Source: an uncultured Prevotellaceae bacterium
GTDB taxonomy: Bacteria > Bacteroidota > Bacteroidia > Bacteroidales > Muribaculaceae
Reading direction: 5' to 3'
Length of the DNA: 64,000 bases
Assembly (NCBI GenBank): GCA_900318255.1
Contig: ONJX01000018.1
Coordinates: 5,598-69,597 of the forward strand
Every line of letters begins with the position of its first letter. The stretch's first letter is position 1. The notes beneath the pieces are model-generated. The model worked only from the letters and a program-made list of their open reading frames with translations, made no database searches and was not told the origin of the DNA. Shown here in pieces: positions 797-16,642 of this stretch. The position numbers were made by a program, and so were the translations under genes.

Positions 797-799
797 GTT

Positions 800-968
800 A
801 TAGTTTTTGAGCCTCTGCGGTCTCTAACCTCTAACCGCTCAACTCTAAACTTTGTGAATTAGAAAAAATAGCCGGAGGCCTTTTTCTAATTCTCAAATAT
901 AAGTGGTTCAAACTTATAGGTGGTGAATTGCCTGCACTCTGGGAACTCCTCTTCATGGTTCCACATCA
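800..968 (-). repeat. Diverged copy of the element-end repeat (other copies at 11934 and 12957)
   Basis: Shares GGTCTCTAA..CTCTAAC.GCTCAACTCTAAACTTTG, the GAATTAGAAAAA..TTTTTCTAATTC hairpin and the coding tail ending IFEN-stop. Confidence 0.8.
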
Positions 969-1041
969 AGTGCACTATGCCAAAAGCGTAGGGTTGACAC
1001 TCGCCCAACTGACCGTCATTAAAGATTAGTCTCGTTGTCAT
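886..1041 (-). pseudogene. Chimeric prophage remnant: DUF6712-like N-terminus joined to the ...FEPLIFEN tail of the element's terminal gene
   Basis: Manual translation MTTRLIFNDGQLGECQPYAFGIVHLMWNHEEEFPECRQFTTYKFEPLIFEN; start resembles MTRIITSDEQL (16592) and end matches the repeat copies at 12.1 and 13.1 kb. Confidence 0.55.
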
Positions 1042-1055
1042 TATTGCTTAAAAAT

Positions 1056-1092
1056 AGCGGTTGATTCACTCCGCAGATGTAAACCAACCACT
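1056..1092. repeat. Conserved imperfect palindrome, copy 1 of 4
   Basis: AGCGGTTGATTCAC..GTAAACCAACCACT; homologues at 1802, 5968 and 16606. Confidence 0.85.
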
Positions 1093-1116
1093 TGAAGCCT
1101 TAGGAAGACGGTGTGT

Positions 1117-1671
1117 TTAGAATGTGGGTGATGAAGTGCCTTTTTGATAAATGTAATATATCAGCCTTTCATTGTCTTTCCCTTTCCAGTAAGGCGACTC
1201 GATGTCTAACCAAGTGTCGTTATTTTCGTCTGTGAATATGTCATTGAAGGGAATGTCTTGACCATACCACACTTCGCTGTGAGAAAATTCTTCATCATTG
1301 TTGATGGTAGCATATAGATTGAGGTAAGATTTGCCGTCTTTCCATAGTAGCGACCAGTTGCCTTTAAGGTCGCCGTTACCACTCGTTGTTTCCCAATCAG
1401 TCCAAACTTCTTGCTCACCAACGATAACCTTATGACGGGTTTGCTTTTTTACATAACCCGTTAGACTTCCATCGCTTGCAAAGGTAAGCTGCTCAAAAAG
1501 TTTGACGCTCTCATTTTGCCGTTCTTGCCACCACGAGCCAACGATTTTATCATTATACTTGTTGCGAAGTTCGTTGGTCTTCAATTCATTCTCGTTAATT
1601 GGTTCATCATTGCCACAACCGACAAGAGTTATAGCAACTGCCATAAGCAGCAAAAGTGCGATTTTTTTCAT
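1117..1671 (-). CDS. Hypothetical lipoprotein
   Basis: 184 aa; MKKIALLLL..LVGC lipobox; no domain recognised. Confidence 0.75.
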   Translation of the reverse strand: MKKIALLLLMAVAITLVGCGNDEPINENELKTNELRNKYNDKIVGSWWQERQNESVKLFEQLTFASDGSLTGYVKKQTRHKVIVGEQEVWTDWETTSGNGDLKGNWSLLWKDGKSYLNLYATINNDEEFSHSEVWYGQDIPFNDIFTDENNDTWLDIESPYWKGKDNERLIYYIYQKGTSSPTF

Positions 1672-1801
1672 ATCTAAAAACGGTTTTTACTATCTTTGTC
1701 ATTAATACGCGTAAAAAACATTAATGTTGCTGCAAGCACTTACAATTTAACAATAATTATCATGCGCACCGTCTATTGTGGAAGTGATATAGCGATAAGT
1801 T

Positions 1802-1838
1802 AAGCGGTTGATTTACTGCTAAGGTAAACCAACCGCTT
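1802..1838. repeat. Conserved imperfect palindrome, copy 2 of 4
   Basis: AAGCGGTTGATTTAC-TGCTAAG-GTAAACCAACCGCTT. Confidence 0.9.
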
Positions 1839-1902
1839 TGGCTCTTAAAAGATGTTGACGATAAATTGGAACTTATCTGTTTGTTGCGTTATCATGCCAG
1901 CA

Positions 1903-2466
1903 TCATAATACCAAATGCTTCATCGGATGACCGCCCCACGAACTGTCGTTCACATAACGAAAACCGATAGAGGTGTAAAGTTTCTCGCCAGCAGGATTCC
2001 CATTGTCAACCAACAACCCCACGCAGGGCAATCCCATCCGCTCCGCCTTCTCCTTGGTGGCTTTCAGGAGTTGCCGGGCAATGCCTTGGCGGCGATGTTC
2101 AGGTTCTATGGCAAGCGAGTCGAGATATAGCTCGCCCGCCTGCGTCTCGTCATCCATTCCTGAATGGTCCTTGCCGATGCACTCTTTTGCGGCTTGCACG
2201 AATGCCTGCCTCAGTGAATGTAAATGGCCACCGTCATAGCTGACGGCAATCCCAACTAACCTGTCTTCATCCATGGCCACCAGCGTATTAAGGTAGCTGT
2301 ATTGTGAATCTTCACGCTCCACAAGCATGGTCATCATCTCACGAAAGTCCTCCAGACCATAGCCCGCCTCACAAAAATGCAGGCAGCAATCGTCTGTCAT
2401 CGCCGTCATGATCAGCCGGGCAATATCGGCTGCTTGTCCCCTCTGGGCATTCTTTATCTCAATCAT
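1903..2466 (-). CDS. GNAT-family N-acetyltransferase
   Basis: LAIEPEHRRQGIARQLL acetyl-CoA motif and NPAGEKLYTSIGF. Confidence 0.9.
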   Translation of the reverse strand: MIEIKNAQRGQAADIARLIMTAMTDDCCLHFCEAGYGLEDFREMMTMLVEREDSQYSYLNTLVAMDEDRLVGIAVSYDGGHLHSLRQAFVQAAKECIGKDHSGMDDETQAGELYLDSLAIEPEHRRQGIARQLLKATKEKAERMGLPCVGLLVDNGNPAGEKLYTSIGFRYVNDSSWGGHPMKHLVL

Positions 2467-2476
2467 GATTTATTGC

Positions 2477-3181
2477 TTATTCTAATGTCCATCCATGGTC
2501 GCCATGATAAATCATCAGGCGTGTCATGCCGCCATCAATGCAGATGTTCTCGCCTGTGATGAAACCGGCCTTGCTGGAACAGAGATAGAGCACCATGCAG
2601 GCAATGTCCATGGGATTGCCAACACGACCCACTGGCTGCTGGGTGGCGTCGGGACCTTCATACACGGTGCTGGCGGTATCAATCCATCCAGGAGAGATAG
2701 AGTTGACACGAACCTTACCAGCCAGGCTGACAGCCATAGCATGGGTCAGAGAGGCAATACCACCCTTGGCGGCAGTGTAGCTCTCAGTTTGAGGTTGACT
2801 CATGCGGTCGCGCGAAGACGAAATATTCACGATGGCAGCACCCTCGTCGAAGTGAGGCAGAAAGAGTTTTGTGAGGTAAAACGGAGCGGTCACGCCCACA
2901 CTCATAGCATACTGGAAATCCTCATAACTGCATTCATCAATACCCTTCATCAGCGGCAGGGCATTATTGATAAGAAAATCCAGGTGGCCGTGCTTCTCTA
3001 TCACTTCTTTGGCAAATCGCTCCAACACTTGTTTGTCGGCAAGGTCGCCCACAAAGTGGTTGCCCGGCTGCTTGTCAATCACACAAACCGTGGCTCCTGC
3101 CTTCAGGAACTCATCGGCGATGCACCTGCCTATACCTTGTGCGCCACCCGTCACGACTACTACTTTTTTCTTGAAATCCAT
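2477..3181 (-). CDS. SDR-family oxidoreductase
   Basis: TGGAQGIG Rossmann motif, NNA, YTAAK catalytic motif, VNSISPG. Confidence 0.92.
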   Translation of the reverse strand: MDFKKKVVVVTGGAQGIGRCIADEFLKAGATVCVIDKQPGNHFVGDLADKQVLERFAKEVIEKHGHLDFLINNALPLMKGIDECSYEDFQYAMSVGVTAPFYLTKLFLPHFDEGAAIVNISSSRDRMSQPQTESYTAAKGGIASLTHAMAVSLAGKVRVNSISPGWIDTASTVYEGPDATQQPVGRVGNPMDIACMVLYLCSSKAGFITGENICIDGGMTRLMIYHGDHGWTLE

Positions 3182-3208
3182 AATTGATTCAATTTGCTTA
3201 AATGGAAT

Positions 3209-3529
3209 TTACTTCTTTCTCTTTTGCTTGGGTTCAGGGAGAACCTTGCATGTTTCAATGACCAACTTAGAAAGATAGTCATGGTCATCTACATCTGCTA
3301 TGTAGAAATACTGCTTTGCGCCCTCATAGGGCGGACGCAATTCTTCCGTTCTGAGCAATGGACGTACTGCCTCAGTAGGTTTCAGATAGAAACAGTCATC
3401 ACAGATTAGACCAAATATCTTTCCATTGCAATAGATTCCATAGTCCCCAAACATTTTCTTGGCTACTATATCACCAGCTCCCGAACATTGGTCAACAATA
3501 TATTGCACAAAGTCCTTACTACTTGCCAT
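3209..3529 (-). CDS. TfoX/Sxy N-terminal domain protein
   Basis: KKMFGDYGIYCNGKIFGLICDDCFYLK is typical of TfoX_N. Confidence 0.85.
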   Translation of the reverse strand: MASSKDFVQYIVDQCSGAGDIVAKKMFGDYGIYCNGKIFGLICDDCFYLKPTEAVRPLLRTEELRPPYEGAKQYFYIADVDDHDYLSKLVIETCKVLPEPKQKRKK

Positions 3530-3541
3530 ATAAAATCCGAT

Positions 3542-3694
3542 TTATTCTTTTGTGAATTTATAAACTGCCAGGGTTGGCAACACGACCATAAGCATTAGCG
3601 TAATCTCCACTAAGGCGTATGAACCAAAATAGTCAACCAGTGTCTTGAAGTCATTCAGCATCGTTTTGAGGACGGTAATCTTTACTATCTTCAT
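3542..3694 (-). CDS. Small ORF (50 aa) with hydrophobic C-terminus; possibly a remnant
   Basis: Manual translation MKIVKITVLKTMLNDFKTLVDYFGSYALVEITLMLMVVLPTLAVYKFTKE, in line with neighbouring minus-strand genes. Confidence 0.4.
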   Translation of the reverse strand: MKIVKITVLKTMLNDFKTLVDYFGSYALVEITLMLMVVLPTLAVYKFTKE

Positions 3695-3798
3695 ATATCT
3701 CTGTTCCTATTTGTTTTGTTGCTAAATTGGAATTTACTGACTGACAGAGGTTAACCTGTAAATACATTATCTTAACTTTTTTTGAATTTGTCCTGCTA

Positions 3799-4320
3799 TC
3801 AGATATTTCGTGAATTTTTTACTCTCTCATTCAAAATTTCGCACAATTCCTTCGGTTTAATCGTCAGGCCTTCTGCGGGAAGTGCTTCTTGTGAACCAGC
3901 CACACTCTTGTTGAAGCGGCGAACGGCACGCCCAGCCTTGCTAGCATCTTCAAATTTGTGCAACTCTACGTTTTCTTTGTATTGTATGCCAATCAACTTT
4001 GTCTTTCCCCTTTCTGTTCCCACTTTCGTGAGATAGAAGCGTTCTACATCAGCAAAGTGAACTTCATAAGTCTTTAAACCACTATTCATAATGATTCTAT
4101 CATCCGTAATCATATAATATGGTGTGTGGGTTATTCTTTCTTTCAATATGAGAAATAACATGAAAAGTCCACCTCCGCCAAAGAATAAGATGCCAGCCCA
4201 TACAATGAATGATTGTTCTCCATGCAGAAGCATGAAAATTCCCATTGCAACAACCCCAAAACATACAGCCATTAAGGCTATGTTTTTCCAAATTGAATGA
4301 TATATTCTGATATCTTCCAT
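3799..4320 (-). CDS. Membrane protein with two N-terminal TM helices (STM3941-like)
   Basis: Start placed at MEDIRIY because the TACCTTTG box lies at 4351-4358; two hydrophobic helices then a soluble domain. Confidence 0.65.
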   Translation of the reverse strand: MEDIRIYHSIWKNIALMAVCFGVVAMGIFMLLHGEQSFIVWAGILFFGGGGLFMLFLILKERITHTPYYMITDDRIIMNSGLKTYEVHFADVERFYLTKVGTERGKTKLIGIQYKENVELHKFEDASKAGRAVRRFNKSVAGSQEALPAEGLTIKPKELCEILNERVKNSRNI

Positions 4321-4350
4321 AAATTCCAATTTATCGTTCAAATTATGCCA

Positions 4351-4392
4351 CAAAGGTAGGCATTTTTTCCGCTACCTGCGCTTATTTCTTGG
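4351..4392 (-). promoter_or_regulatory. Bacteroidetes promoter block, duplicated at 8633-8673
   Basis: Plus strand CAAAGGTAGGCATTTTT(T)CCGCTACCTGCGCTTATTTCTTGG occurs twice; contains TACCTTTG (TAnnTTTG -7 box) on the minus strand. Confidence 0.75.
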
Positions 4393-4648
4393 AGATTTGT
4401 TATTCATCAGCCTTTGGTAATCATCTTGAGGTTGGTGAGCTATCGCTTTCCTCCTCCTTGCAAGGCATAGTGCAAGTGAGCTTGCCTCTGTATTAGGCTT
4501 ACGCAATATTTCACGTAGGGCATTGTTGTCACGAACCATGACCAATGGGGTTTGTAAAAAAAGAGCTCATACGGTTGCCAGAAACAAAAAAATGTTTACC
4601 TTTGTGGACGAAAACTGTGCATTTGCACAAAAAACAATCACAACAAAT

Positions 4649-5911
4649 ATGGAAATACAACGTAACATCCATTTAAACAGGCTAATAAGTCGTCGCCACA
4701 ATGGAATGATAAAGGTGGTAACAGGTTTGCGTCGTTGTGGCAAATCTTATTTGCTTTTTAAATTGTTTGACAGGTACTTACGTAATGAAGGTGTTGATGA
4801 CAAACACATAATCAAAATTAATTTGGAAGACCGCCGAAACATGGCATTGCGTGACCCAGACAATCTGTTGGCGCACATTGACAGCAAATTGCAAGATGAC
4901 CAAATACACTACATTCTGCTCGATGAGGTGCAGTTTGTCAGTGAATTTGAGGACGTTCTCAACAGTTACTTGCAAGTGCCCAACGCCGATGTATATGTCA
5001 CCGGCTCAAACGCCAAGTTCCTGTCAAAAGATGTGATCACCGAGTTCCGCGGTCGTGGTGACGAGGTACGCATCCATCCATTGTCGTTCGGTGAATTTAT
5101 GAACGTGCGCGATGGCATGAGTAAAGCTGAGGCACTCAATGAATATGTGACCTATGGCGGCTTGCCTCAAGTAGTTCTCATTGACTCTGTGCAAGATAAA
5201 CGGAAATACCTGCAAAACCTGTTTCGACACACCTATTTAAGCGATATTCGCGAGTGGCATCAAATCAGGAATGATGATGATTTGGAGGAGTTGGTCAACA
5301 TCATCGCTTCGTCTATTGGAGGATTGATAAATCCTCAAAAAATCATGAACACATTTCACTCGGTGAAGCATAGCGACATTGGCAGAAACACTATCAAGCG
5401 TTATCTAGAATACCTTGAAGATGCGTTCCTGATTGAGAAAGCATTGCGTTACAACATAAAGGGCAAAAAGTACATCGACACTCCAGCAAAGTATTACTTT
5501 GACGACATGGGGTTACGCAATGCCCGGTTAAACTTTAGGCAGACCGAACCGACTCATTTGTTTGAGAATGCAGTATATAACGAGTTGAGACTGCGTGGTT
5601 ATTCGGTGGACGTAGGTCAAGTAACCAGATATGTGACTGGCGATGACGGCAAACGCGAGCGTCGCAATCTCGAAGTAGATTTTGTGTGCAATGAGGGATA
5701 CAAGCGGAGCTATATTCAAGTCGCTTATCGTTTGCCAGATGAGGAGAAGCGCGACCAAGAGTTAAACTCGTTACGTAATATCAACGACAGCTTCCAAAAG
5801 GTGGTGATTGTAGGTGACAATTATCCTAAATATCAAAATGATAAAGGGGTATTGTTCATTAGTATTTACGACTTCTTGCTCAACGAAAACAGCTTGAATG
5901 ACAATAATTGA
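4649..5911 (+). CDS. AAA_14 ATPase with DUF4143 C-terminal domain
   Basis: Walker A GLRRCGKS, Walker B LLDEVQ, TGSN, YYFDDMGLRN, EVDFV..IQV; start set at MEIQR after TACCTTTG at 4597. Confidence 0.9.
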   Translation: MEIQRNIHLNRLISRRHNGMIKVVTGLRRCGKSYLLFKLFDRYLRNEGVDDKHIIKINLEDRRNMALRDPDNLLAHIDSKLQDDQIHYILLDEVQFVSEFEDVLNSYLQVPNADVYVTGSNAKFLSKDVITEFRGRGDEVRIHPLSFGEFMNVRDGMSKAEALNEYVTYGGLPQVVLIDSVQDKRKYLQNLFRHTYLSDIREWHQIRNDDDLEELVNIIASSIGGLINPQKIMNTFHSVKHSDIGRNTIKRYLEYLEDAFLIEKALRYNIKGKKYIDTPAKYYFDDMGLRNARLNFRQTEPTHLFENAVYNELRLRGYSVDVGQVTRYVTGDDGKRERRNLEVDFVCNEGYKRSYIQVAYRLPDEEKRDQELNSLRNINDSFQKVVIVGDNYPKYQNDKGVLFISIYDFLLNENSLNDNN

Positions 5912-5967
5912 AACAAAGTCGTGCCCACGCTGTGCACCGTCTGTTGTGAGTGAGATTGCCATAAGTT

Positions 5968-6003
5968 AAGCGGTTGAGATACGCTTGGTTAACTCAACCG
6001 CTT
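5968..6003. repeat. Conserved imperfect palindrome, copy 3 of 4
   Basis: AAGCGGTTGAG..CTCAACCGCTT; the following CTTGAAGCCTTA.GA flank is shared with copy 1. Confidence 0.85.
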
Positions 6004-6027
6004 GAAGCCTTAAGAGACGTTGCTACA

Positions 6028-6465
6028 TCAGTTATTGTCTATTTTGGTGTCTTTCTTAAAACGAGCGATTTCCTCTTTGGAATCGGTCTTATACCAAACC
6101 ATTTCATTCTTTGTGAGTCGGTGGATGTCACACTCAATATAAATTTTGGTCTGACCATCATGTTCCTTGCCGGTAAAGATGTTCATGTGTGCTGTTTCTC
6201 CAACTCGGTAATGAAGGTCGGTAACCGTCCATCCTTCATCGGGCCAATTTGATTCATAAAGCTCAATTCGCCCAGAATAAGACGTTTCAGGATAGAACAC
6301 ATATTTAACGACACTCGCGTCTTGTATCCTACTAGCGAACACTTGTGTCCAAATGCCCTCAAGTCTGCTTGAGTCAAAACTCTTGACATCCTCGTCGCCG
6401 CATGATGTTGCGGCAAGAAGTGTGATAGACAAAAAGATGAAACTAAGCCACTTAAATTTTCTCAT
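6028..6465 (-). CDS. Hypothetical lipoprotein (lipocalin-like)
   Basis: Lipobox AATSC followed by the LEGIW motif common to lipocalin-like Bacteroidetes lipoproteins. Confidence 0.7.
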   Translation of the reverse strand: MRKFKWLSFIFLSITLLAATSCGDEDVKSFDSSRLEGIWTQVFASRIQDASVVKYVFYPETSYSGRIELYESNWPDEGWTVTDLHYRVGETAHMNIFTGKEHDGQTKIYIECDIHRLTKNEMVWYKTDSKEEIARFKKDTKIDNN

Positions 6466-6515
6466 AACTTAAAGATATTATTGAATACTTGTAAATCCCG
6501 ATTTATCTGTTTTTG

Positions 6516-7199
6516 TTAATCAGCTTTGAAGATAATATGCATATAGTTTCCATTTTCATAACCGAAGCGCTGCACGAGCGTGGAACCGTCGTAGATAGCT
6601 TCCAGTTGCAGTTTTATGCCGTTTTCAACAAGTGAGCAGAACGCTTTCGGCTGTTTCAGTTCGTCCTCCGTAAACTTGTAATACTGGCTGTTGTTATTAA
6701 ACTCTATGCGGATGTGATGATCAACACCATCGTAGTTCAAGTTTAGCAGCATGACATTGGGGATGAAAGCCCATTTCACATGAGAATAGTCAGTGTCGTA
6801 GTCGAAGCCATAGCGGGCAGTGATAGCCTGCTGAGTAGACTCGGCAAGTGCATGGCTGAGTCCTTCGTCAGTAACCACCTTTGAAATCAGAGATATGGGG
6901 AAGTCTTGAAAGAAAACATGCAGCATATTGTTGTCAGACACATCAACCTGTACGCCATTGAAGGTTTCACTATGGGCTACCGTTATAGGTCGACCTGCCT
7001 CGTCAGTCCCTTCGACACAATCTTTGTTTTTGTAGGTAATGATATACAGGCCAGGATATTCACCCGAAATGTTCTGCGCATAGGCTTCCTTTTGCTTGCT
7101 CGTCAATTGCTTCACAACATCGTCTTCGCTGCTACAAGATGCGAGGAAGAAAACTGAGAACAATAGCGATATAAATCCTAAAAACTTTAATTTTCTCAT
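6516..7199 (-). CDS. Lipoprotein, DUF4840-like
   Basis: FLASC lipobox; SGEYPG..FPISLISK..ALA..YGFD pattern. Confidence 0.6.
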   Translation of the reverse strand: MRKLKFLGFISLLFSVFFLASCSSEDDVVKQLTSKQKEAYAQNISGEYPGLYIITYKNKDCVEGTDEAGRPITVAHSETFNGVQVDVSDNNMLHVFFQDFPISLISKVVTDEGLSHALAESTQQAITARYGFDYDTDYSHVKWAFIPNVMLLNLNYDGVDHHIRIEFNNNSQYYKFTEDELKQPKAFCSLVENGIKLQLEAIYDGSTLVQRFGYENGNYMHIIFKAD

Positions 7200-7265
7200 A
7201 TTACTACTCTAATTTACACATTTGCTACTACCAATTAACGCAGGAAAATCGCGATTATTATGCTG

Positions 7266-8600: not shown

Positions 8601-8632
8601 ATAAAATCTGATTTATCGTTCTAATAACACAG

Positions 8633-8673
8633 CAAAGGTAGGCATTTTTCCGCTACCTGCGCTTATTTCTTGG
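8633..8673 (-). promoter_or_regulatory. Second copy of the promoter block at 4351-4392
   Basis: Near-identical 41-42 bp sequence upstream of the aspartyl protease gene. Confidence 0.75.
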
Positions 8674-8713: not shown

Positions 8714-8971
8714 TCAAGCGTGCAGGGGCATGGCGATGTTCACGTGCTCCACGTTGTCCGCTCCCTGCTCCACGCTCTCCACCAGGCGGAGTTGCGACAG
8801 TATCGCCTTCCAGTTCTCGAAAATCTGCTGCTCGGTGCTGCTTGACGCACTGGTGAGCAAGTCAGTGATGTCGTGAAGGAGTGCCCCCACCGTCTCGGGC
8901 GAGATCGACTCCTTCTCCGTCTCCACACAGAATGCGGAGATAAGTTGAGTCAGTTGTGTTGTGTCAATCAT
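8714..8971 (-). pseudogene. Truncated 5' end of a prophage tail/structural gene
   Basis: MIDTTQLTQLISAF.VETEKESISPETVGALL resembles the N-terminus of long Bacteroidales prophage tail proteins; ends abruptly after 85 aa; GC-rich relative to its neighbours. Confidence 0.6.
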
Positions 8972-8989
8972 AAGAAAAAAGTTTTGGAT

Positions 8990-9057
8990 AAATCAGGCTG
9001 CGTCTCGGAAAAGCTCAAGTAAACTTGGCTTTTCACTCAACTTGCACTGATTTTGCG
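8990..9057 (+). repeat. Dispersed intergenic repeat of the family targeted by the IS110
   Basis: ATAAATCAGGCTGCGTCTCGGAAAAGCTC..TTGCACTGATTTTG aligns with the reconstructed IS110 empty site ATAAATTAGGCTGCACCTCGGCATA..TTGCACTAATTTTTG; the same 3' end recurs near 24690-24706. Confidence 0.6.
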
Positions 9058-9166
9058 GTTTTCTGTCGCAAAACTACACTCAAAGTTTGGTTGACGAAAA
9101 GACACAAAAAATAGTTAATTAAACTTATAAAATAAGGTGTCATAATAGTAATCACAATTTTTTGCT

Positions 9167-9174
9167 TATTTTTG
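9167..9174 (+). promoter_or_regulatory. -7 promoter box for the retron operon
   Basis: TATTTTTG matches TAnnTTTG about 30 nt upstream of the ncRNA. Confidence 0.55.
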
Positions 9175-9205
9175 TAAAAAATTGTATTTAATCAATTTTA
9201 ATATT

Positions 9206-9345
9206 GAGCGACAAGAAATAAATTTCAAGCTTTGATTCGGATTTTCCGAATTAGTTTACTGGTATCGGTAAATAGAAATTAATGTATCAAAGTGTACCAA
9301 TCAAACCTTTCAAGGAAAGCAAATTATTTTATTTCTTTGTCGCTC
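9206..9345 (+). ncRNA. Putative retron msr-msd RNA
   Basis: Terminal inverted repeats GAGCGACAAGAAATAAA (9206-9222) and TTTATTTCTTTGTCGCTC (9328-9345, one bulged T); internal hairpins TTCGGA-TTT-TCCGAA, TTTACTG-GTAT-CGGTAAA, CTTTC-AAG-GAAAG; ends 14 nt before the RT ATG. Confidence 0.8.
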
Positions 9346-9359
9346 TTTTTTCTTAAAAA

Positions 9360-10694
9360 ATGAAAAGAAAACAGATGAGTCGTGACGAATATTTTTTCGT
9401 CAAAAATAATAAAGAAAATATCAAAGACCTCCAAATGTTAGCTGACATCTTGGAAGCTATAAATAAGGGCTATTTCCATTATGAATTGCCAATAACGTTG
9501 GATGAAATTAAAGAAATAGCCTCAGATAGAAATAATTCTTATTACAGAATATTCTCAATAAAAAAAAGAAATGGAAATAAACGTCAAATATCAGCTCCAA
9601 ACAATAGACTTAAAGAAATACAAAACTGTATAAGAATTTTACTAACAAGTGTCAATCATAGAGGTAAATCTATAATTGATTATGCGAAACCTCATGTGGG
9701 AAAAGATATTGTTTATAATATGGATATCAAGGATTTTTATCCGTCCATTAATGCTTCACAAATAATTCCAGTCTTTTTTTCTAAATTTAAAAACTATGAA
9801 GTAGCATTGCTTTTAACTTCGCTTGTAACGATGCGCTCAAAATCTGGAATTCCAGTCCTTCCACAAGGGGCACCTTCTTCACCAGCTATTTCAGAATTAG
9901 TTTTAAAGAATCTTGATAGAAAATTATCAGGTTATTCAGAACGACATGGTTTTCAGTACTCAAGATATGTTGATGATATAACATTCAGTTGCTCAAGAAC
10001 TCAGAAATGGATAACATTCGCAGCAGTATTTAATATGATTATTAATTCTGAAGGATTTCAGATAAACAAAAAGAAAAGCCGTGTCTCATTTTATTATCAA
10101 AGACAAGAAGTAGCAGGATTAACGGTTAATGAGCAACTGAATGTTACTAATAAATATATTAAACAACTTCGCACCATTCTCCACAATTGGGAGAAAGATG
10201 GATATGTATTAGCTAGCAACAAATTCTTGATGCACTATTATAAAAATATGACTAATGCAAAAGATTTTATTCCAAAAATGGAACATATAGTAGCTGGCAA
10301 ATTATCTTATTTGAAAATGGTGCGTAGCTATAAACGAAAAAAAAATAGTGAGATTCCGCATCCAGAATTTGATTTTTTTGAAGCTATTGGAATTTCATAT
10401 ACAAAACCTGACGAAAATGAATATACAATAATAAAAACCTCAGATCCTGTTTGGGAAAAATTGCATGATAGATATGTTGCTTTACGAGTTCGTGATTTTA
10501 ACATTATAAATGGCTATGAAGATGACCTGAAATTACAAAAATGCGTCTATCGATATGGCGATGACGCTGGTCCGCTAGTATATGCTGTTAGGAATGATGA
10601 TTCAGAGCAATGGAGAATAATAAAAATCTATAGAAACGGAGTTTGGCGAAATGGTGATGAGGAAGAAGCATATAGACTAAGATATGGTTGTTAA
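9360..10694 (+). CDS. Retron-type reverse transcriptase with an unassigned C-terminal extension
   Basis: KKRNGNKRQISAP, DIKDFYPSI, LPQGAPSSP, YSRYVDD, INKKK and VAGLTVN (VTG-like) motifs; YAKPH in place of NAxxH; AT-rich compared with the host genes. Confidence 0.9.
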   Translation: MKRKQMSRDEYFFVKNNKENIKDLQMLADILEAINKGYFHYELPITLDEIKEIASDRNNSYYRIFSIKKRNGNKRQISAPNNRLKEIQNCIRILLTSVNHRGKSIIDYAKPHVGKDIVYNMDIKDFYPSINASQIIPVFFSKFKNYEVALLLTSLVTMRSKSGIPVLPQGAPSSPAISELVLKNLDRKLSGYSERHGFQYSRYVDDITFSCSRTQKWITFAAVFNMIINSEGFQINKKKSRVSFYYQRQEVAGLTVNEQLNVTNKYIKQLRTILHNWEKDGYVLASNKFLMHYYKNMTNAKDFIPKMEHIVAGKLSYLKMVRSYKRKKNSEIPHPEFDFFEAIGISYTKPDENEYTIIKTSDPVWEKLHDRYVALRVRDFNIINGYEDDLKLQKCVYRYGDDAGPLVYAVRNDDSEQWRIIKIYRNGVWRNGDEEEAYRLRYGC

Positions 10695-10703
10695 ATCATA
10701 TTA

Positions 10704-11005
10704 TCACAAGTGATTTTGGGCGAAATTCTTCTTGTTCAGCGCGTTAGAAATAATCCCCAGGAATTGTAGTCCCAAGTTCTCCTCATAGAACTCCTTGATA
10801 TTCATGACTGAGGCGTAGTATTTGGTGCTGAACCACTTACGTCGTTGGCGTTTTTTTTGCTCGCCAATCTCTTGAATGCATAACCTTAAATTGAAATCGC
10901 GCTCCTCTACTGTCTTGGACCTGCTCATTATCAGCAAATTATTCGTCCATGAAATTTGTATCACCAGTGGTGAGAGTATTTCGCTGGTATTGGGATATGT
11001 CTCAA
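10704..11005 (-). pseudogene. Chimera of a YhcG/DUF1016 N-terminal fragment and the C-terminus of a prophage gene
   Basis: ETYPNTSEILSPLVIQISWTNNLLIMSRSKTVEERDFNLRLCIQE resembles YhcG; IGEQKKRQRRKWFSTKYYASVMNIKEFY resembles a Bacteroidales prophage protein tail. Confidence 0.6.
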
Positions 11006-11025
11006 AGGGTTATATAAAGCAAAAC

Positions 11026-11217: not shown

Positions 11218-11562
11218 TCATAAAACATTAAGATAGTTCTCAACTTGTTGTTTAAGAATTGGCAAGTCATTAACATAAGTGTCCCAGACAAATTTAGGAC
11301 TGGCGATATAGTAACCATGAACTAACACGTGGCGCATGTCAATAATGTCGCGCCATGGGGTGTCTTGGTTTTCATCACGAAATTCTTTGGTCAGCATATT
11401 TGCCGCCTCTCCTATAATCATGATGTTATAGACAACAGCATGAAAGCACATTCTGTTGTTTGTCATATCTTCAAACGTTTTTCCATCCAAAAACTGGAAA
11501 ACATTGTCAATACACTCAAGAATGTGTTGAAGTCTGTCCTTATCTTTAGATTGCTCTCTCAT
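11218..11562 (-). CDS. HEPN/HepT (DUF86) ribonuclease toxin
   Basis: IIGEAA..PWRDIIDMRHVLVHGY contains the RX4HXY HEPN motif. Confidence 0.92.
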   Translation of the reverse strand: MREQSKDKDRLQHILECIDNVFQFLDGKTFEDMTNNRMCFHAVVYNIMIIGEAANMLTKEFRDENQDTPWRDIIDMRHVLVHGYYIASPKFVWDTYVNDLPILKQQVENYLNVL

Positions 11563-11857
11563 AGATTAATTGTCTATCGTAGTTTGCTTCCTCAGCAATC
11601 AGTGGACGCATGGTGCCGTCTTCAACAAGATCAACATCTCGACCAAGCTTCTCCTTTAACTCTCTCCACATTCGGGCGTAAGCTAAAAGTCCGATTGCCG
11701 TACTATGGTCAAATTCAACAAGGATATCTACATCACTGTCGGGGGTCTCCTCGCCACGAGCGAAAGATCCAAACAGCCATGCTTTCAAGACAGGTTGTGT
11801 CTTGAAATACTCGGCGATTGTCGTTTTGATGTCTTGCGTACTCATGATTAATAGCAC
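11546..11857 (-). CDS. Minimal nucleotidyltransferase (MNT) antitoxin
   Basis: LFGSFARGEETPDSDVDILV (GSX10DXD); overlaps the HEPN gene. Confidence 0.92.
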   Translation of the reverse strand: MLLIMSTQDIKTTIAEYFKTQPVLKAWLFGSFARGEETPDSDVDILVEFDHSTAIGLLAYARMWRELKEKLGRDVDLVEDGTMRPLIAEEANYDRQLIYERAI

Positions 11858-11933: not shown

Positions 11934-12123
11934 CCGATTTTTGCCAGATGTGATAGAATTTTGGGGCGCCGAGGTCTCTAAACTCTAACTGCTCAACTCT
12001 AAACTTTGAGAACCAGAAAAAAGCATCCGGCTATTTTTTCTAATTCTCAAATATCGGTGGTTCAAATAACTTGTAGGTTGCGGAGTGCCGGAACTTGGGG
12101 AACTGGGCATCGTGCTTTCGCAT
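11934..12123 (-). repeat. Element-end repeat, copy 2
   Basis: 11934-12060 is nearly identical to 12957-13083 (127 bp, 3 differences by eye); weaker similarity continues through the ...PPIFEN coding tail. Confidence 0.9.
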
Positions 12124-12143
12124 GAATTCCACGATGTCGCGCA

Positions 12144-12692
12144 TCATTCGTTATCTTGCAAACTTTCTAAATCAAAATACAGTAGTCTTGTCGCTGCATC
12201 TTCATCTTCTTTGGTCAAGGGCATAAATCCCATCTTATAGTAAAACGACAAGGCGCCAGCATAGGCATCAACTGTTATAAAACGGCATCCAGCCTTGTTG
12301 TCGTTCTTGTACGAACCAACTATCATATTGACAATCATTGCGCCAATTCCTTCACCGTGGCAACTTACACTTGTTGCCAAACGGCAAATCTTCAATGCGG
12401 GATAGCTTTTGAACATTTTGCCTTGTGCAAAGAATTGTTTACGGAATCGATTGTAGGCCGAGTTGCTGGGGAAGTCAGTCAATGAAATACGATCATGGGC
12501 AAGACTGAAATAGCCGTAAACCTCACCGCTGACTTTATCCTCCAGCACATAACTGGTGGCAAGGCGCACTTTAAAGTACAAAGGAGCATCTGTGAGGATG
12601 AAGTCGTTGAGGTCTTCATCTCCACAATCAAAATGGGAAACAGTATCTGTTTCTCCAAGACGGCGCAACTGTATAGCGTCCTTGTCAATCAT
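12144..12692 (-). CDS. GNAT acetyltransferase of the AtaT/TacT toxin type
   Basis: FDCGDEDLNDF, GYFSL, YPALKICRLA, GIGAMIV and GCRFITVDAY..ALSFYYKMGF are characteristic of tRNA-acetylating toxins. Confidence 0.85.
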   Translation of the reverse strand: MIDKDAIQLRRLGETDTVSHFDCGDEDLNDFILTDAPLYFKVRLATSYVLEDKVSGEVYGYFSLAHDRISLTDFPSNSAYNRFRKQFFAQGKMFKSYPALKICRLATSVSCHGEGIGAMIVNMIVGSYKNDNKAGCRFITVDAYAGALSFYYKMGFMPLTKEDEDAATRLLYFDLESLQDNE

Positions 12693-12854
12693 TTAGAATG
12701 AGCAATTGACGCAACGATTACGCATAAACTCATAGTCATGACGGATACGAGTGCTTCTCTCTTTGCTCACCGGCTTGGGCTTCTGCATCCGCATTTCGAA
12801 CTTCTTAGCCTCCTCACCAAAGAGAATAGGTGTTTCTTTAATCGGTCTTGCCAT
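12693..12854 (-). CDS. 53-aa putative antitoxin for the GNAT toxin
   Basis: Not in the ORF track. MARPIKETPILFGEEAKKFEMRMQKPKPVSKERSTRIRHDYEFMRNRCVNCSF; its stop abuts the GNAT ATG; promoter box upstream near 12886. Confidence 0.7.
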   Translation of the reverse strand: MARPIKETPILFGEEAKKFEMRMQKPKPVSKERSTRIRHDYEFMRNRCVNCSF

Positions 12855-12956
12855 TATTTTATCCTCCGTTAGTATATATTATCTTACAAAGTTAATCTTT
12901 CTTTTTGAGATAGTTGCAATAATTGAGCCAAAAACGAAAGAAAAAAGCATTTTTTG

Positions 12957-13147
12957 CCGATTTTTGCCAGATGTGATAGAATTTTGGGGCACCGAGGTCT
13001 CTAAACTCTAACTGCTCAACTCTAAACTTTGAGAATCAGAAAAAAGCCTCCGGCTATTTTTTCTAATTCTCAAATATCGGTGGAGTGAACAATTTTGCTG
13101 TGTCGCTGGTGGCGAACTCGGGGAACTTTTCCTCGTGCTTTCGCATC
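12957..13147 (-). repeat. Element-end repeat, copy 3
   Basis: See copy 2; the minus-strand coding remnant reads SCRIDLRGVAKPTCSTLSGRGLDAKARGKVPEFATSDTAKLFTPPIFEN-stop. Confidence 0.9.
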
Positions 13148-13274
13148 AAGCCCACGACCCGAAAGCGTTGAGCAGGTCGGTTTTGCCACTCCGCGTAGGT
13201 CGATGCGGCAGCTCTGCAAAAGACGCAAAAAAGGCCCACGCGAAGGTGAGCCGTTATTAAGTTTTTGTGAGTTG

Positions 13275-13727
13275 TTATTTTTTTCTCACCACATAGATAG
13301 CGCCAATGGTGAGCAACAGCACCAATGCTGCCGCTAGCGCGGCATTGAATCTGCTGCCATACTCAATCTTGAGCAGGAAAATGCCATAGTTCAACCCGAA
13401 AAGCAGTGCGGCCCCGACCAGACCGATGACCAGTGCCTGACGGGTGCCACTTGGGTTTTCGTCCCAAGTGCGTTTTGAGAGCACTTGCTTGCCGATGGCA
13501 CAAAGCGGTATAAAGCCGATAGCGAGTGCGACCCATAGGGCAATCTTTTGCTTGGCCGCTTTGTCTCGCGTGGCTTCCTCGCTCTTTTGAATCATTTGGT
13601 CAACTTGCTCCTGCATTTGGCGGTATTTACCATCTTTATCAAGCGAGCCATACATCTCCTCGGGAGTGGGCGAGGCAAACGCCTGCAAGGCCATCAAGGC
13701 TAAAACTGCTACTATAAACGTTTTCAT
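13275..13727 (-). CDS. Hypothetical membrane protein
   Basis: Signal peptide plus three hydrophobic segments; overlaps the upstream gene by 4 nt. Confidence 0.7.
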   Translation of the reverse strand: MKTFIVAVLALMALQAFASPTPEEMYGSLDKDGKYRQMQEQVDQMIQKSEEATRDKAAKQKIALWVALAIGFIPLCAIGKQVLSKRTWDENPSGTRQALVIGLVGAALLFGLNYGIFLLKIEYGSRFNAALAAALVLLLTIGAIYVVRKK

Positions 13728-15001
13728 TCCTCTTCTATTACAGCGATAAGACGTTTCACTTTGTCAAGTGTGTAGCCCTCGGTGACGGGAACCACTTCCA
13801 CTACCTCATCGCCCACGTGGTAAGCGCCCATGCGATTGCCGTCGCCTGCAAGGACATACATGCCGCCCTTGAGCGTGAAATAGGTGTTGACGTATGAGTA
13901 GCCGGGCTGGATTAGCACATCGCCATTGTCGGCATCCATGACGCCCATGCGTCCATCAACCGTGATTTTTGCCAAAACACCGTGATTTGACGGGCTGCGG
14001 TCAATCAACTCAATGCGGTTGCACACGCAAGGGATGGTACGATTGTCACCACTGACAATAGCACCATTAATTATGCCATGACGCAACATTCCTTGTCCGT
14101 CACGCTGTGTTACATCATAAAATTCTCTTGGTCCACCATTATCGCGAGCTATAAGCACCTTAACACTTTCATATACTGGTTCAACTATTGCGTAGCCTCC
14201 AGCATTGTACACGCCCCACTTTCCCTCGAGATTTTTCACCAAGAAAACGTCCAATCCAGTCGGCACCGGCACAGATTCCACCTTTAAGAATTGCCCTGCC
14301 TCCTGTCCGTCCTGGTCGTAGAGCACCCATAGCTCTTGACCATTGGGGAAAGTCTTGCCATAGGCTGTAGCCCAATCGCTGCTATAACCGATTTTCTTGT
14401 CATAGCCATTCTTGATGTCAACGCTCGAGAGGTGCTGAAAACCGCCAGAGTTGGGTTGAGGAGTGTGCTGCTGTATTTGCACTTCCGCATTTCGCTCGGA
14501 TTCTTCTTTTTCCATTCTGGCATTATAAGCATCAAGGTCAGCCTTAGTATAATTGAGGTTAATAAATAATTTCAAATAGTCAACCATGCGTTTATAGTCC
14601 CACAAGGCTCGCTTGCGAACGGATTCGGTAGTGGCATTCTCGGCCTTTGCCCGATCTTCCTTGGCCCATTTTTGCATATTGATTATCTCACACCAGGGCT
14701 GATGTTTGAGGCTTTTGCAATGACTGCATGGTTTCACGCCATTGACACCTATTTCATAAATCAAAGCATGCTCGATGGAAGATACTTCTGGCAACGGAGT
14801 GTAGTCGCGCAGATGCGTGGAACTGGAAGATGATGATTCTTCCTCCTTTGGCGCCTCATAATAGGGGCAATTGCTCTTGTGCGCTTCGCCGGTTTTCAAG
14901 TTTACATTGCAATAGGCGCAATGCGGGTCGCCGGGTTGCGGTATCTGCGCATAGGTTGCTGTCGCGACCCCCAGCAAGGCAATAAGGATAATTCGTTTCA
15001 T
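13724..15001 (-). CDS. Secreted protein with Cys/His-rich N-terminus and WG-repeat-like C-terminus
   Basis: Signal peptide; HCAYC..HKSNC and CSHC..HQPWC clusters; GKWGVYN, GRMGVMD and NRMGAY repeats. Confidence 0.65.
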   Translation of the reverse strand: MKRIILIALLGVATATYAQIPQPGDPHCAYCNVNLKTGEAHKSNCPYYEAPKEEESSSSSSTHLRDYTPLPEVSSIEHALIYEIGVNGVKPCSHCKSLKHQPWCEIINMQKWAKEDRAKAENATTESVRKRALWDYKRMVDYLKLFINLNYTKADLDAYNARMEKEESERNAEVQIQQHTPQPNSGGFQHLSSVDIKNGYDKKIGYSSDWATAYGKTFPNGQELWVLYDQDGQEAGQFLKVESVPVPTGLDVFLVKNLEGKWGVYNAGGYAIVEPVYESVKVLIARDNGGPREFYDVTQRDGQGMLRHGIINGAIVSGDNRTIPCVCNRIELIDRSPSNHGVLAKITVDGRMGVMDADNGDVLIQPGYSYVNTYFTLKGGMYVLAGDGNRMGAYHVGDEVVEVVPVTEGYTLDKVKRLIAVIEEE

Positions 15002-15013
15002 AGTCAGCAGGTT

Positions 15014-15595
15014 TTAATATTGGAAAAACATGGCTCCCGGTGCGTCGGGATTCTTGATTCGGCGGACGATGATTTCGCCGCTGTGCATAGGGTAGGCCAA
15101 CTTGGGTGTGCAACCCACGGCCAAGATAATCACCTTCACGTTGTCGCTCTCGATGTAGACATACTTCAAGTTCCAGTTCTTGCTCAAATCCACGGTGTCA
15201 AGTTTACTTTCTCCTAACCACAGTTTCTCAAGGTTGGGGAACAAAGCGAGGTCTTCGTAGGTCGACACCTCAAACATGTCTGTGCGGTACTGCGTGAGGA
15301 TGAGTGACTTAACAGAATCGGCCTCAACCCTTGAGATGTGGCCGTCGCCATCGGTGTCGCCTTTGAGCAGTGCGCGCCGCTCAATGTTGCGGTCGGCAAA
15401 AGTGAGACTTTGCGCACCGGCTTTGAAGGCGAAAAAGGCACATAGGGAAATAATGAAAATAATCAAGACCACTATCCAACCTTTACGGCCCGGCTTTGTG
15501 TCCTCCATCATTTCCAGGTTATTCCTGAGCTGTTCAAGCTCCTGGATCTGCTTAATTTGCTGCTGATTGAGTTCTTCGTCCATAACATTAGTCAT
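15014..15595 (-). CDS. Membrane-anchored protein with an EF-hand-like loop and LRR-like segment
   Basis: One TM helix, DTDGDGHISRVE, FPNLEKLWL..LDTVDLSKN. Confidence 0.65.
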   Translation of the reverse strand: MTNVMDEELNQQQIKQIQELEQLRNNLEMMEDTKPGRKGWIVVLIIFIISLCAFFAFKAGAQSLTFADRNIERRALLKGDTDGDGHISRVEADSVKSLILTQYRTDMFEVSTYEDLALFPNLEKLWLGESKLDTVDLSKNWNLKYVYIESDNVKVIILAVGCTPKLAYPMHSGEIIVRRIKNPDAPGAMFFQY

Positions 15596-15772
15596 TGGAT
15601 TCTATATGTTATACAGAAAACTCTTCATGAAGGAAGAATCCAGATTGGCCTAAACGAAGAGTAAATGACAATCGCAAAGGTATAACAATATTTTGATAAT
15701 CAGAGTTTTTTCTAAAGATTTTTAATGTTTTTTGCAGCAAAACTACTCAAATTGTTATATTTCTAACTAAAC

Positions 15773-15840
15773 AATCTTTAGCCTTTGCCACCTAAATAAT
15801 TCACTATTGCAAGATAAGCTTTGCAATTTCCTCGCGGGCA
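15773..15840. repeat. 68-bp perfect direct repeat, copy A (copy B at 19185-19252)
   Basis: AATCTTTAGCCTTTGCCACC..CCTCGCGGGCA is identical in both places and includes the 3' end of a hydrolase coding sequence. Confidence 0.92.
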
Positions 15841-16592
15841 GCGCTGCCTTCGGAGCATGGCCATAGCGGATAAACATGCCCAAGCTTTTGTGCAACATGA
15901 AGCGTTGCTTTCACACCTGCAGTTTTCATCATCTGGTAGGTTTTAACCACATCGGTATAGAATATCTCCCAAGTGCCTATGAAAAGGTAGGTGGGCGTCA
16001 GACTCTGCATATTGCCGTAAAGGGGTGAAATCATCGGGTCGCGCGGGTCAATGTCGATGGCTTTGGAGCGCAAGCCCAAATAGTTCGCCCACCGATGATC
16101 GGTGAAGCCGCAGAGGTTGGCGAGGTCGATAAATGGGAATAGCGTGGCGGTGAACCAGTGGCGAATGGTGGTGTCGTACCATTCCGTGATGCGGAACAGG
16201 TACGCCACCAGCTGCTCGATGCAGTCGTCCAGGCTGGCTTCGAGCGAGGCGATGAGCCGTGCCACCCGGTCACGGCTTGCCGGTGCCACGTTCTGGTTGC
16301 TCACAATGCCGAAACCGTTGGGCGTGAGCACCAGGTCGAGGCTCGGCACGGCACGCATCATGGCCTCATGCGCCACGACGCACGCGGCGGTGACGCGCAC
16401 CGGCTCGTCGGGGTCGAGCGTGAGGAAAGTGTCGGCGAAGTCGTCGCCTACGAACTGCGAGAACAGCCACCGCTCGGCGGTCTGGAGCCACGACAGCACC
16501 TTGTCGTACAAGGGCGTTTCGCCCTGCGCCGTGGCGAAAGCGTTGGGCAGGTATCGCCGCAACTGTTCATCTGATGTGATTATTCGTGTCAT
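15804..16592 (-). pseudogene. In-frame fusion of a DUF6712-like prophage head-tail protein and the C-terminus of an alpha/beta hydrolase
   Basis: About the first 185 aa contain AVPSLDLVLTPNGFGIVSNQNVAPASRDRV (Bacteroidales prophage protein, GC-rich); the remainder, DPRDPMISPLYG..FIGTWEIF..LGHVYP, is an esterase tail with lower GC. Confidence 0.7.
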
Positions 16593-16605
16593 TGTTATAA
16601 TAGAT

Positions 16606-16642
16606 TAGCAGTTGATTTACTGTAAAGGTAAACCAACTGCTA
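16606..16642. repeat. Conserved imperfect palindrome, copy 4 of 4
   Basis: TAGCAGTTGATTTAC..GTAAACCAACTGCTA, with a compensatory G-C to A-T change relative to copy 2. Confidence 0.9.

Follow-up and report, generated by a model that had tools for sequence, protein, structure and literature searches.

A recurrent hairpin module with an embedded promoter motif, putatively a terminator-promoter, at the downstream edge of cargo insertions in prophages of rumen Bacteroidales

The stretch analysed here, 64 kb of a genome assigned to an uncultured Prevotellaceae bacterium (contig ONJX01000018.1; hereafter the window), contains at positions 800–19250 a decayed prophage island in which a short module built around a hairpin is present four times. 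The copies, c1–c4, are numbered by position, while L numbers denote related loci and X numbers metagenome or metatranscriptome runs. Our preferred reading, to which we assign a probability of roughly 0.55, is that the module is a composite terminator-promoter which marks the downstream boundary of moron insertions in a family of uncultured temperate tailed phages of rumen Bacteroidales, with Muribaculaceae-like hosts. The module is repeated in a constant context, with a covarying stem and a conserved sequence motif, and is restricted to junctions between phage genes that bear cargo (accessory genes).

A covariance model of the module, built from its relatives and then run over the window, found exactly four copies, all on the minus strand and within 16 kb, which score 55–78 bits (E 1e-10 to 1e-15). 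Nothing else on the minus strand of the 64 kb exceeds 15 bits, and the plus-strand matches (9.5–31 bits) are palindromic mirrors of the same four copies. Alignment shows each hairpin to be the core of a conserved segment of 60–70 nt (repeat families D4, D5, D8 and D14), with the sense consensus CGTCTTTT(A/C/G)-N9-GCGGTTG(G/A)(T/G)TTAC-loop-GTA(A/T)(A/C)TCAACCGC-T-rich-ATG. The original prediction from this DNA held that each hairpin follows a cargo gene, and this is borne out, a cargo open reading frame (ORF) ending 6–50 nt before each of the four copies. Copy c4 (16594..16660, hairpin 16608–16640; 65.6 bits; predicted RNA energy −16.0 kcal/mol) lies 15 nt past the stop of the gene at 16672..17550 and 18 nt ahead of the ATG at 16592, and consists of a T-tract, TCTTTT, followed by a 13-bp stem, GCAGTTGGTTTAC/GTAAATCAACTGC, that closes the loop CTTTACA. 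Copy c3 (5956..6021, hairpin 5970–6001; 63 bits; stem GCGGTTGAG../..CTCAACCGC) lies 10 nt past the stop of the lipoprotein gene 6028..6465 and 10 nt ahead of the ATG at 5962; it shares 86% identity with the corresponding unit of viral contig L085. The best-scoring copy, c2 (1790..1856, hairpin 1804–1836; 77.9 bits), has a perfect 13-bp stem in which one pair is G-U, and is found 50 nt past the stop of the GNAT gene 1903..2466. Copy c1 (1043..1112, hairpin 1057–1091; 55.1 bits) has U-G wobbles in the stem, a 9-nt loop, an altered T-tract (TCTTCCT) and a U-rich 3' tail (ATTTTTAA), and lies 6 nt past the stop of the lipoprotein gene 1117..1671. All four stems are retained, at −14 to −19 kcal/mol.

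Across 80 distinct copies, 96.6% of the cells in the 13-bp stem are paired, and double-sided changes are present at four of the 13 pairs (e.g. GTTC/GAAC in L188). The compensatory changes reported in the original prediction are real, namely GCAG/CTGC in c4 and GAG/CTC in c3, together with the U-G wobble in c1. The observed stem values were reached by none of 500 shuffles and no slid register came close; these pairing statistics rest on 48–80 distinct relatives. Read on the sense strand, 52 cells are G-U whereas three are A-C, which indicates that the structure matters on that strand, and the loop measures 6, 7, 9, 10 or 11 nt, which argues against a rigid binding site for a dimeric protein on double-stranded DNA. 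The covarying stem, the sense-only G-U pairs and the variable loop thus point to an RNA hairpin. An inverted repeat that serves as a double-stranded operator, bound by a dimeric phage repressor or activator straddling the promoter element described below, would account for dyad symmetry centred on such an element, and a lysogen would benefit from a silencer of structural-gene promoters. However, half-site spacing varies by 5 bp, the bias in mismatches falls on one strand and is of relevance to RNA, not to duplex DNA, and no regulator gene travels with the module; we rejected the operator on the first two counts and consider it highly improbable.

The module belongs to a family of about 80 distinct copies, found at 65 genome loci and on 5–6 viral contigs. 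The host genomes are nearly all rumen metagenome-assembled genomes (MAGs) of Muribaculaceae, 'Prevotellaceae' or Bacteroidales, with up to seven copies per MAG, and the viral contigs in which pattern scans found true copies include L082/L086, L085 (twice), L106 and L112. It occurs at three or more junctions of the phage backbone, always with cargo, and the recognisable start of a structural gene, of one of three types, follows directly in 64 of the 82 copies that could be assessed, most of the others being followed by shorter stubs. The hairpin is therefore not scattered independently of prophage genes, a distribution that would have spoken against the original prediction.

It had been supposed that the hairpin is fixed at the junction between a portal gene and DUF6712, but none of 80 viral DUF6712 loci carries it, with or without an insert, which speaks against the hairpin as part of the backbone at this junction; in most of these loci the upstream gene overlaps the DUF6712 start. 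Cargo-free L001–L003 and L020 have overlapping or abutting genes at DUF6712 and no module. A query with the tail gene found after the tape measure gene added L186–L188 and L191, which have both cargo and module, and also L189, a relative at 36% identity that has neither, the stop of its tape measure gene overlapping the ATG of the tail gene. As cargo-free junctions are without the hairpin, the hairpin belongs to the insertion and not to the phage backbone.

Some features fit a terminator. All copies have the stem expected of an intrinsic terminator, with predicted energies in the family of about −12 to −22 kcal/mol (mean −18), and in most copies 4–50 nt separate the cargo stop from the module, and mostly 9–18 nt the stem from the ATG. 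A simple scan ranks c4 first among the terminator-like sites of the minus strand. In assemblies of bovine and sheep rumen metatranscriptomes the lipoprotein unit that ends at c3 is transcribed, contig depth in X39 being 33–68 over the two lipoprotein genes upstream of c3 versus 0–7 beyond the hairpin.

A second candidate signal is embedded in the hairpin. The search patterns fixed the T-tract and left the loop free, and within the loop the first five bases, CTTTG, carry 1.3–1.6 bits, the last three 0.06–0.26 bits. Together with the last 3 nt of the stem's 5' arm, the loop bases spell TA(C/T)(C/T/A)TTTG. Promoters of Bacteroidota have a −33/−7 consensus with the start site 4–5 nt past the −7 box, of which the refined form is TAHHTTTG (PMC6847099, PMC10620806, PMC9723704, PMC4747536). 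Of 80 copies of the module, 68 retain an intact TAnnTTTG, every time in the TAHHTTTG form, with the T-tract TCTTTT 19–20 nt upstream of it and the stem starting 10 nt after the T-tract. Given the 4–5 nt between box and start in known promoters, transcription is predicted to start in the 3' arm, about 18–25 nt before the ATG.

The box is broken in all four copies of the window, where the downstream genes are dead stubs, being degraded to TACATCTG in c1, TACCTTAG in c2 and TACCTTTA in c4, and lost in c3 (TAACCAAG). Across the family, all 11 copies with decayed boxes lie ahead of dead stubs, and none of the 19 copies ahead of intact genes has decayed. Six cargo operons in the window keep TAHHTTTG boxes of their own (at 18694, 15682, 12894, 11881, 8640 and 4358).

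In a simpler reading, which we regard as unlikely, the module is no more than the moron's intrinsic terminator, or a stabiliser of its 3' end, and the −7 box is functionless inherited baggage. This would explain the covariation of the stem, the G-U bias of the sense strand, the position just past cargo stops, the fall in RNA depth after c3, the terminator-like rating of c4, and the survival in the window of stems and not of TTTG. It leaves unexplained, however, why CTTTG is conserved like the stem beside a loop remainder that varies freely in sequence and length, why the fit to TAHHTTTG is constant at the right distance from both T-tract and ATG, and why the box has decayed only in copies that stand before dead genes.

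Under the terminator-promoter reading, an insertion would cut a structural gene (DUF6712, the tail gene after the tape measure, or a third gene) from its upstream neighbour, and the module would restart transcription. In the cargo transcript the 13-bp stem and the U-rich stretch would end or stabilise the RNA and block run-on into the structural genes. The embedded promoter, presumably read by the housekeeping sigma factor of Bacteroidota, would comprise TCTTTT at the −33 position and a −7 box that spans the last bases of the 5' arm and the first of the loop; transcripts begun there would be without the 5' arm and hence unterminated. In the window, where the structural genes are dead, the stems kept and the −7 boxes lost, only the stop function seems to survive. 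Both activities, termination and promotion, are predicted here from sequence.

A number of observations weigh against this reading. Only c4 passes the U-run rule (5 of 8) of the simple terminator scan, c1–c3 failing it, and most copies have interruptions in the U-tract (TTAACTTAT). A −33 element would read TTTG about 19–21 nt upstream of the −7 box; the tract has the right spacing and reads TTTT(A/C/G), with TTTG present in a minority, and its invariance is partly imposed by the search pattern. The association between box decay and dead stubs is weak (Fisher's test, one-sided 0.032, two-sided 0.056, with relatedness ignored). The RNA contigs are assembled and break at repeats for technical reasons, so that their ends near a repeated element are unreliable as transcript ends; only depth contrasts were used, and these are weak evidence. 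In about nine viral loci the insert upstream of DUF6712 is of another kind, has a different sequence between the genes and lacks the module, which makes the module one solution among several. Lastly, a constitutive promoter for tail genes would need to be silenced in the lysogen, and no regulator was identified.

Turning to the genes that follow the hairpins, the original prediction described four homologous DUF6712-like starts. This is correct for c4, where Pfam assigns the start at 16592 to DUF6712 (PF20459, E 9.6e-20), and for c1, where the start at 1041 is DUF6712 by DNA and protein similarity; c2 and c3 instead precede the start of a gene of 650–673 aa (MAISLTIDGAQVALKKGSSIEYVSENRIFTDADDY..., or a MILTINGK variant), which follows the tape measure gene in related contigs. 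The tape measure assignment is based on PF10145 in the L189 homologue. A third type of downstream gene, found elsewhere, begins MAQHNTLDVCRVDLF... and MKQQIKPIDACRLDLF....

In the window each of these genes is damaged, and all lie on the minus strand. The N-terminal 184 codons of DUF6712 (16041..16592) are 89–91% identical at the DNA level to L001–L003, L020 and L123, and the identity ends at 16041, DUF6712 being fused in frame at 16040 to the C-terminus of an alpha/beta-hydrolase (15804–16040; PF07859, E 1.7e-7). An internally deleted DUF6712 (886..1041) retains some 20 codons of the N-terminus (MTTRLIFNDGQL...), joined to some 30 of the C-terminus (ending FEPLIFEN, then stop), the full-length relatives ending ...KLFEPPIFENKKK.... 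In the decayed tail-gene start after c2 (1763..1797; D9/D14 repeats) the ATG has become ATC, with the remainder, ...GCTATATCACTTCCACAATAGACGGTGCGC, recognisable against the consensus ATGGCTATATCACTGACAATAGACGGTGCGCA of L130, L140 and L145. The tail-gene stub after c3 (5930..5962) consists of 11 codons, MAISLTTDGAQ, and runs on into the ATPase gene antisense; L156 has the identical junction.

Some side observations concern the promoters and leaders around the insertions. Promoters of first cargo genes at 4347–4369, 8629–8651 and 18683–18705 have a −7 box, TACCTTTG, in or beside a small palindrome (for example ATGCC-TACCTTTGT-GGCAT), and at related loci a hairpin stands directly upstream of the −7 box of the cargo promoter; the principle of hairpin plus promoter may thus extend to the upstream edge of insertions. 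At 16635, RNA-derived contigs (X25, X26) run from the 292-aa cargo gene into the 5' arm of c4 and then diverge (...AGCAGTT|ACCGTACTTTTGTG...) into a sequence with another TAnnTTTG at equal distance from TCTTTT and no palindrome, which indicates that a palindrome-less variant of the junction exists in other strains. Some copies have an extra leader of 60–80 nt, which separates the ATG from the module or from the upstream gene and is composed of A/C-rich heptamer repeats (CTATAAA, CTAAACC, CACCTAA); it is present in L085 (11690–11840), L187, L191 and L106, and upstream of DUF6712 in L019, L022, L029, L034 and L046.

Strain variation bears on the question of whether the hairpin is itself a site of recombination, an option raised by the original prediction. 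L156 is without the equivalent of window positions 7265–13244 and part of the ATPase gene, and contigs of X14 skip 7261->8652, which removes a promoter and the 444-aa cassette, and 4704->5837. In X10 a minority joint, 8674->1795, at about 18% of strain depth, places a 6.9-kb block of several cassettes head to tail; the joint has no shared bases and falls 9 nt from c2, and may reflect a duplication in tandem, a circular form, or a second strain whose array is ordered differently. A further X14 joint, 2584->5995, has a side of 30 nt and is given no weight here. None of the strain-to-strain breakpoints examined lies inside a hairpin, for which reason we rank a role as recombination signal below a role in expression.

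A substrate for the movement of cargo, either a recombinase site of the attC kind or a patch of homology like the promoter-early stem-loops (PeSLs) of T4-like phages, with expression signals secondary, is decidedly unlikely in our estimation. It would account for the fact that one 60-nt sequence flanks 48 unrelated clusters of cargo at three or more junctions, and PeSLs do mediate such shuffling (PMC2839356). Also consistent with it are the loose ends at 1782 and 1838 in X10, which reflect near-identical copies on the island and before an intact tail gene in one metagenome, and the proximity of the head-to-tail joint to c2. Yet that joint shares no bases, the three strain differences above break outside hairpins, no integrase or other recombinase is associated with the module, and the stem is short and perfect, with none of the bulged bases of attC. 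The joints between stubs also differ between loci, and on this ground, together with the positions of the breakpoints, a site-specific recombination site was rejected as the principal explanation.

The island as a whole, 18 kb long, is decayed and rearranged, a mosaic in which retained cargo alternates with remnants of prophage genes. It consists of stubs of structural genes and intact accessory genes, all on the minus strand with the exception of a plus-strand ATPase and a plus-strand reverse transcriptase. The stubs are redundant: DUF6712 C-termini occur three times, and DUF6712 N-termini, tail-gene starts and tape measure tails twice each, from which it follows that more than one phage-genome equivalent contributed. 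The three tails that end in IFEN and a stop (886–975, 12060–12143 and 13083–13157) each represent a DUF6712 C-terminus with terminator and leader. One such unit (11934..12143, minus strand; repeat families D1/D2) has its C-terminal stub at 12060–12143 and a terminator hairpin with intergenic leader at 11934–12060, and by blastn it matches the 3' end of DUF6712 in L001–L008 and L020. A second (12957..13157, minus strand) has a 127-nt flank 98% identical to 11934–12060 and shares the endpoint of the first stub, which looks like duplication of a unit or recombination. A third copy of the terminator/leader segment (780..906, minus strand) is 65% identical to 11934–12060.

The remaining backbone fragments, also on the minus strand, include a C-terminal stub of the tape measure gene (4372..4554; tblastn E 2e-10, blastn to L085) and a second tape measure remnant (8645–8673, within 8629..8673; D7, D10 and D16 repeats), of which 29 nt are identical to 4364–4392 and which is followed by a cargo promoter with intact TACCTTTG. 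Two fragments of one phage structural gene (8719–8973 and 10700–10865, within 8719..10865), adjacent in L009 and L010 by blastn, are split by the reverse transcriptase gene. The gene at 17577–18656 had been taken for the portal and proves by Pfam to be a YhcG PDDEXK nuclease, hence cargo. The true structural fragment upstream of DUF6712 is at 18768..19080 (minus strand; blastn to about 75 viral loci), the C-terminal part of the 453-aa gene that immediately precedes DUF6712 in intact relatives and is an unverified candidate for the portal.

The description of this locus as collapsed prophages that kept their morons is a fair account of the outcome, with stubs beside intact cargo, but four independent collapses are not needed for it. 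In the arrays of many related genomes, a tail-start stub fused to a tape-measure-end stub stands between successive cargo units, the two being joined at different residues in L117, L120, L130, L131, L146, L166 and L167, and it is these cargo-plus-stub arrays in many genomes, with the shared stub endpoint and flank in the window, that make separate collapses unnecessary. A tandem series of four or more prophages, with the hairpin lying between portal, cargo and DUF6712 and each reduced independently to its moron, would explain the redundant backbone stubs (e.g. the three DUF6712 C-termini). It would also explain the 68-nt direct repeat which brackets one remnant like att sites, and the existence of an intact ancestor of the c4 remnant in L123. 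We nevertheless hold it to be very improbable, since two of the four hairpins are at the junction of tape measure and tail gene and not at DUF6712, arrays of the same build are present in many genomes, two units share stub endpoints and a 98% identical flank, and there is a single att-like repeat pair. L123 has the same YhcG and 292-aa cargo as the c4 remnant, the module and a full DUF6712 of 283 aa, and is 89.6% identical to the window up to the deletion joint at 16041.

The repeat pair itself is exact (15773–15840 and 19185–19252), comprises the last 12 codons of the hydrolase with its 3' flank, and brackets the remnant containing c4; it looks like an att duplication, and no hydrolase body is found upstream of the copy ending at 19252. 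An IS110-family transposase (DEDD_Tnp_IS110 and Transposase_20; 20331–21428, minus strand) lies 1 kb past the right end of the island. In keeping with the original prediction no integrase was recognised among the window ORFs scanned or read, a non-exhaustive check.

The cargo retained in the window is diverse. Upstream of c4 is a unit (16672..18656, minus strand; Pfam) with its own promoter (−7 box at 18694), encoding the YhcG nuclease (17577..18656; PADLOC PDC-S02, E 2e-108) and a 292-aa protein with a signal peptide (16672..17550). The unit that ends at c3 (6028..8600, minus strand) encodes a retropepsin-like protein of 444 aa (7266..8600) and two lipoproteins (6516..7199, DUF4840, and 6028..6465). 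The one that ends at c2 (1903..4353, minus strand; Pfam) encodes a membrane protein (3799..4320), a 50-aa ORF, TfoX_N (3209..3529), SDR (2477..3181) and GNAT (1903..2466) proteins, and the lipoprotein that ends at c1 (1117..1671, minus strand) falls in the same cluster as the cargo of L140 and L136. Between these are a MNT/HepT toxin-antitoxin pair (11218..11857, minus strand; Pfam; MNT matches PADLOC PDC-S09) and further cargo (12144..15595, minus strand), namely a GNAT (12144..12692), a 150-aa membrane protein and proteins of 425 aa and 193 aa, with a TAHHTTTG box for each operon.

On the plus strand, an AAA_14/DUF4143 ATPase (4523..5911; Pfam; PADLOC PDC-S01, E 1e-121) sits between the stub after c3 and the tape measure stub and is partly deleted in other strains. 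The retron-type reverse transcriptase (9360..10694; Pfam RVT_1; PADLOC reverse transcriptase families, E 7e-74) matches the RT-Protease_XI and RT-TIR_XII models (E about 1e-70) in its reverse transcriptase part only, and its C-terminal 120 aa match nothing. Judged by the candidate anti-phage matches to PDC-S01, PDC-S02 and PDC-S09, the island is in part a defence island.

A tabulation of cargo variability, as the original prediction had proposed, assigned 68 ORFs upstream of modules to 48 protein clusters. They include GNATs, CarboxypepD_reg proteins, retropepsin-like proteases, helix-turn-helix proteins, CrcB, a Na/Ca exchanger, an FGE-sulfatase, a dockerin and an outer membrane beta-barrel; many of the cargo proteins have a signal peptide and no family.

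A 16-nt inverted repeat lies flush with the codons of many single cargo ORFs, GATAAATYGGAATTTA ending at the A of the ATG and TAAATTCCAATTTATC beginning with the stop codon. It is present in the window at 3196–3211/3531–3546, 3721–3736/4320–4335 and 1860–1875, and in loci L118, L120, L133, L137, L145, L147, L149 and L162, with 54 sites in 1.6 Mb of loci at up to two mismatches. About 14 unrelated protein families are flanked by it, six on both sides, including TfoX of the window (3209..3529). Candidate roles are 5'-3' pairing in the mRNA, a cassette handle, or inversion.

We tentatively entertain, as an improbable extension, a gene-cassette system in which the 16-nt repeats and the hairpin would be handles for the capture, exchange or loop-out of ORF-sized units. 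Repeat-flanked ORFs (GATAAATYGGAATTTA ... TAAATTCCAATTTATC) would be preceded by a standard promoter module and followed by the terminator-promoter hairpin. Such units would accumulate in head-to-tail order at fixed junctions within the structural operon, and would persist in the chromosome as arrays after the phage is lost. If true, this would be an integron-like capture system for surface, defence and metabolic genes that works without an integron integrase.

The window has no Rfam match at gathering thresholds, no tRNA or tmRNA genes were found in it, and from 22 to 64 kb it consists of ordinary chromosomal genes. No relative of DUF6712 was found among the isolated-phage genomes of INPHARED, and DUF6712 is named in no paper found by our literature search. 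The 453-aa gene upstream of it has no match in Pfam, PHROGs or PDB sequence searches, and the same searches left the 670-aa tail gene, the third downstream gene and the phage fragments unnamed.

Accessory genes carried by phages influence the surface, defence and metabolism of bacteria in the gut and rumen, and how such cargo enters tightly coupled structural operons and leaves them functional is poorly understood beyond the phages of E. coli. A portable stop/restart adaptor would explain how unrelated genes come to lie between tape measure and tail genes. It would serve as a tag for morons and prophage relics in Bacteroidales, and as a compact insulator part for engineering in Bacteroidota. 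The window shows the afterlife of such cargo, in which the phage is gone and lipoproteins, GNATs, reverse transcriptase, YhcG nuclease and MNT/HepT are kept, each with an intact hairpin and a presumably working promoter.

Of the systems already described, the moron of lambdoid and other temperate phages, in the concept of Hendrix and Juhala, consists of a promoter, a gene and a terminator between two phage genes. The insertions described here resemble it in that cargo operons with their own promoters lie between structural genes that abut in relatives, are followed by a hairpin, and are expressed from the prophage state. They differ in that classical terminators vary from moron to moron, whereas here one boundary module accompanies unrelated cargos and insertion points, and in that the module appears to carry a restart promoter.

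The integron attC site is an imperfect palindrome of 57–141 nt with bulged bases, which acts with the IntI integrase and attI. Arrays of unrelated single genes, a palindrome after each, and accumulation at a fixed locus are common to both. In contrast to integrons, a non-exhaustive inspection of the ORFs revealed no IntI, attI or Pc, the palindrome is 32–35 nt, near-perfect and without bulges, and the joints are variable backbone stubs, not core sites. Compared with the Rho-independent terminators of Bacteroidota, the module likewise has a GC-containing 13-bp stem right after the stop and a U-rich tail, but its loop is conserved as a promoter box and its U-tract is interrupted.

The closest parallel is with the PeSLs of T4-like myoviruses, in which a stop codon, an AT-rich tract, a sigma-70 promoter and a start codon follow one another, and the stem-loop, in which G-T pairs occur, lies either between the two boxes or across the −10 box (PMC2839356, PMC4122927). 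PeSLs act as promoter and terminator by experiment, promote modular shuffling and flank variable ORFs (PMC2839356, PMC4122927). Both elements combine a promoter of the host housekeeping sigma type with a stem-loop, tolerant of G-T pairs, between the boxes or over the downstream one; both flank variable, non-essential ORFs beside conserved structural modules; and both are thought to stop transcription of accessory genes from spilling into late virion genes. The differences are that the promoter of the module is of the Bacteroidota TTTG/TAnnTTTG type and that of PeSLs is sigma-70, and that the module is found in temperate siphovirus-like prophages of rumen Bacteroidales, whose backbone includes a tape measure gene, and PeSLs in the hyperplastic regions of T4-like myoviruses. 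Furthermore, one stem sequence is conserved over dozens of genomes in the module family, and the module is present only at the downstream edge of the insertion, the upstream edge having a different promoter with a small hairpin. Promoter and terminator activity has been demonstrated by experiment for PeSLs and is predicted here for the module. On this comparison the module is best read as a Bacteroidota counterpart of the PeSL, one that would work like a PeSL without being a strict member of that class.

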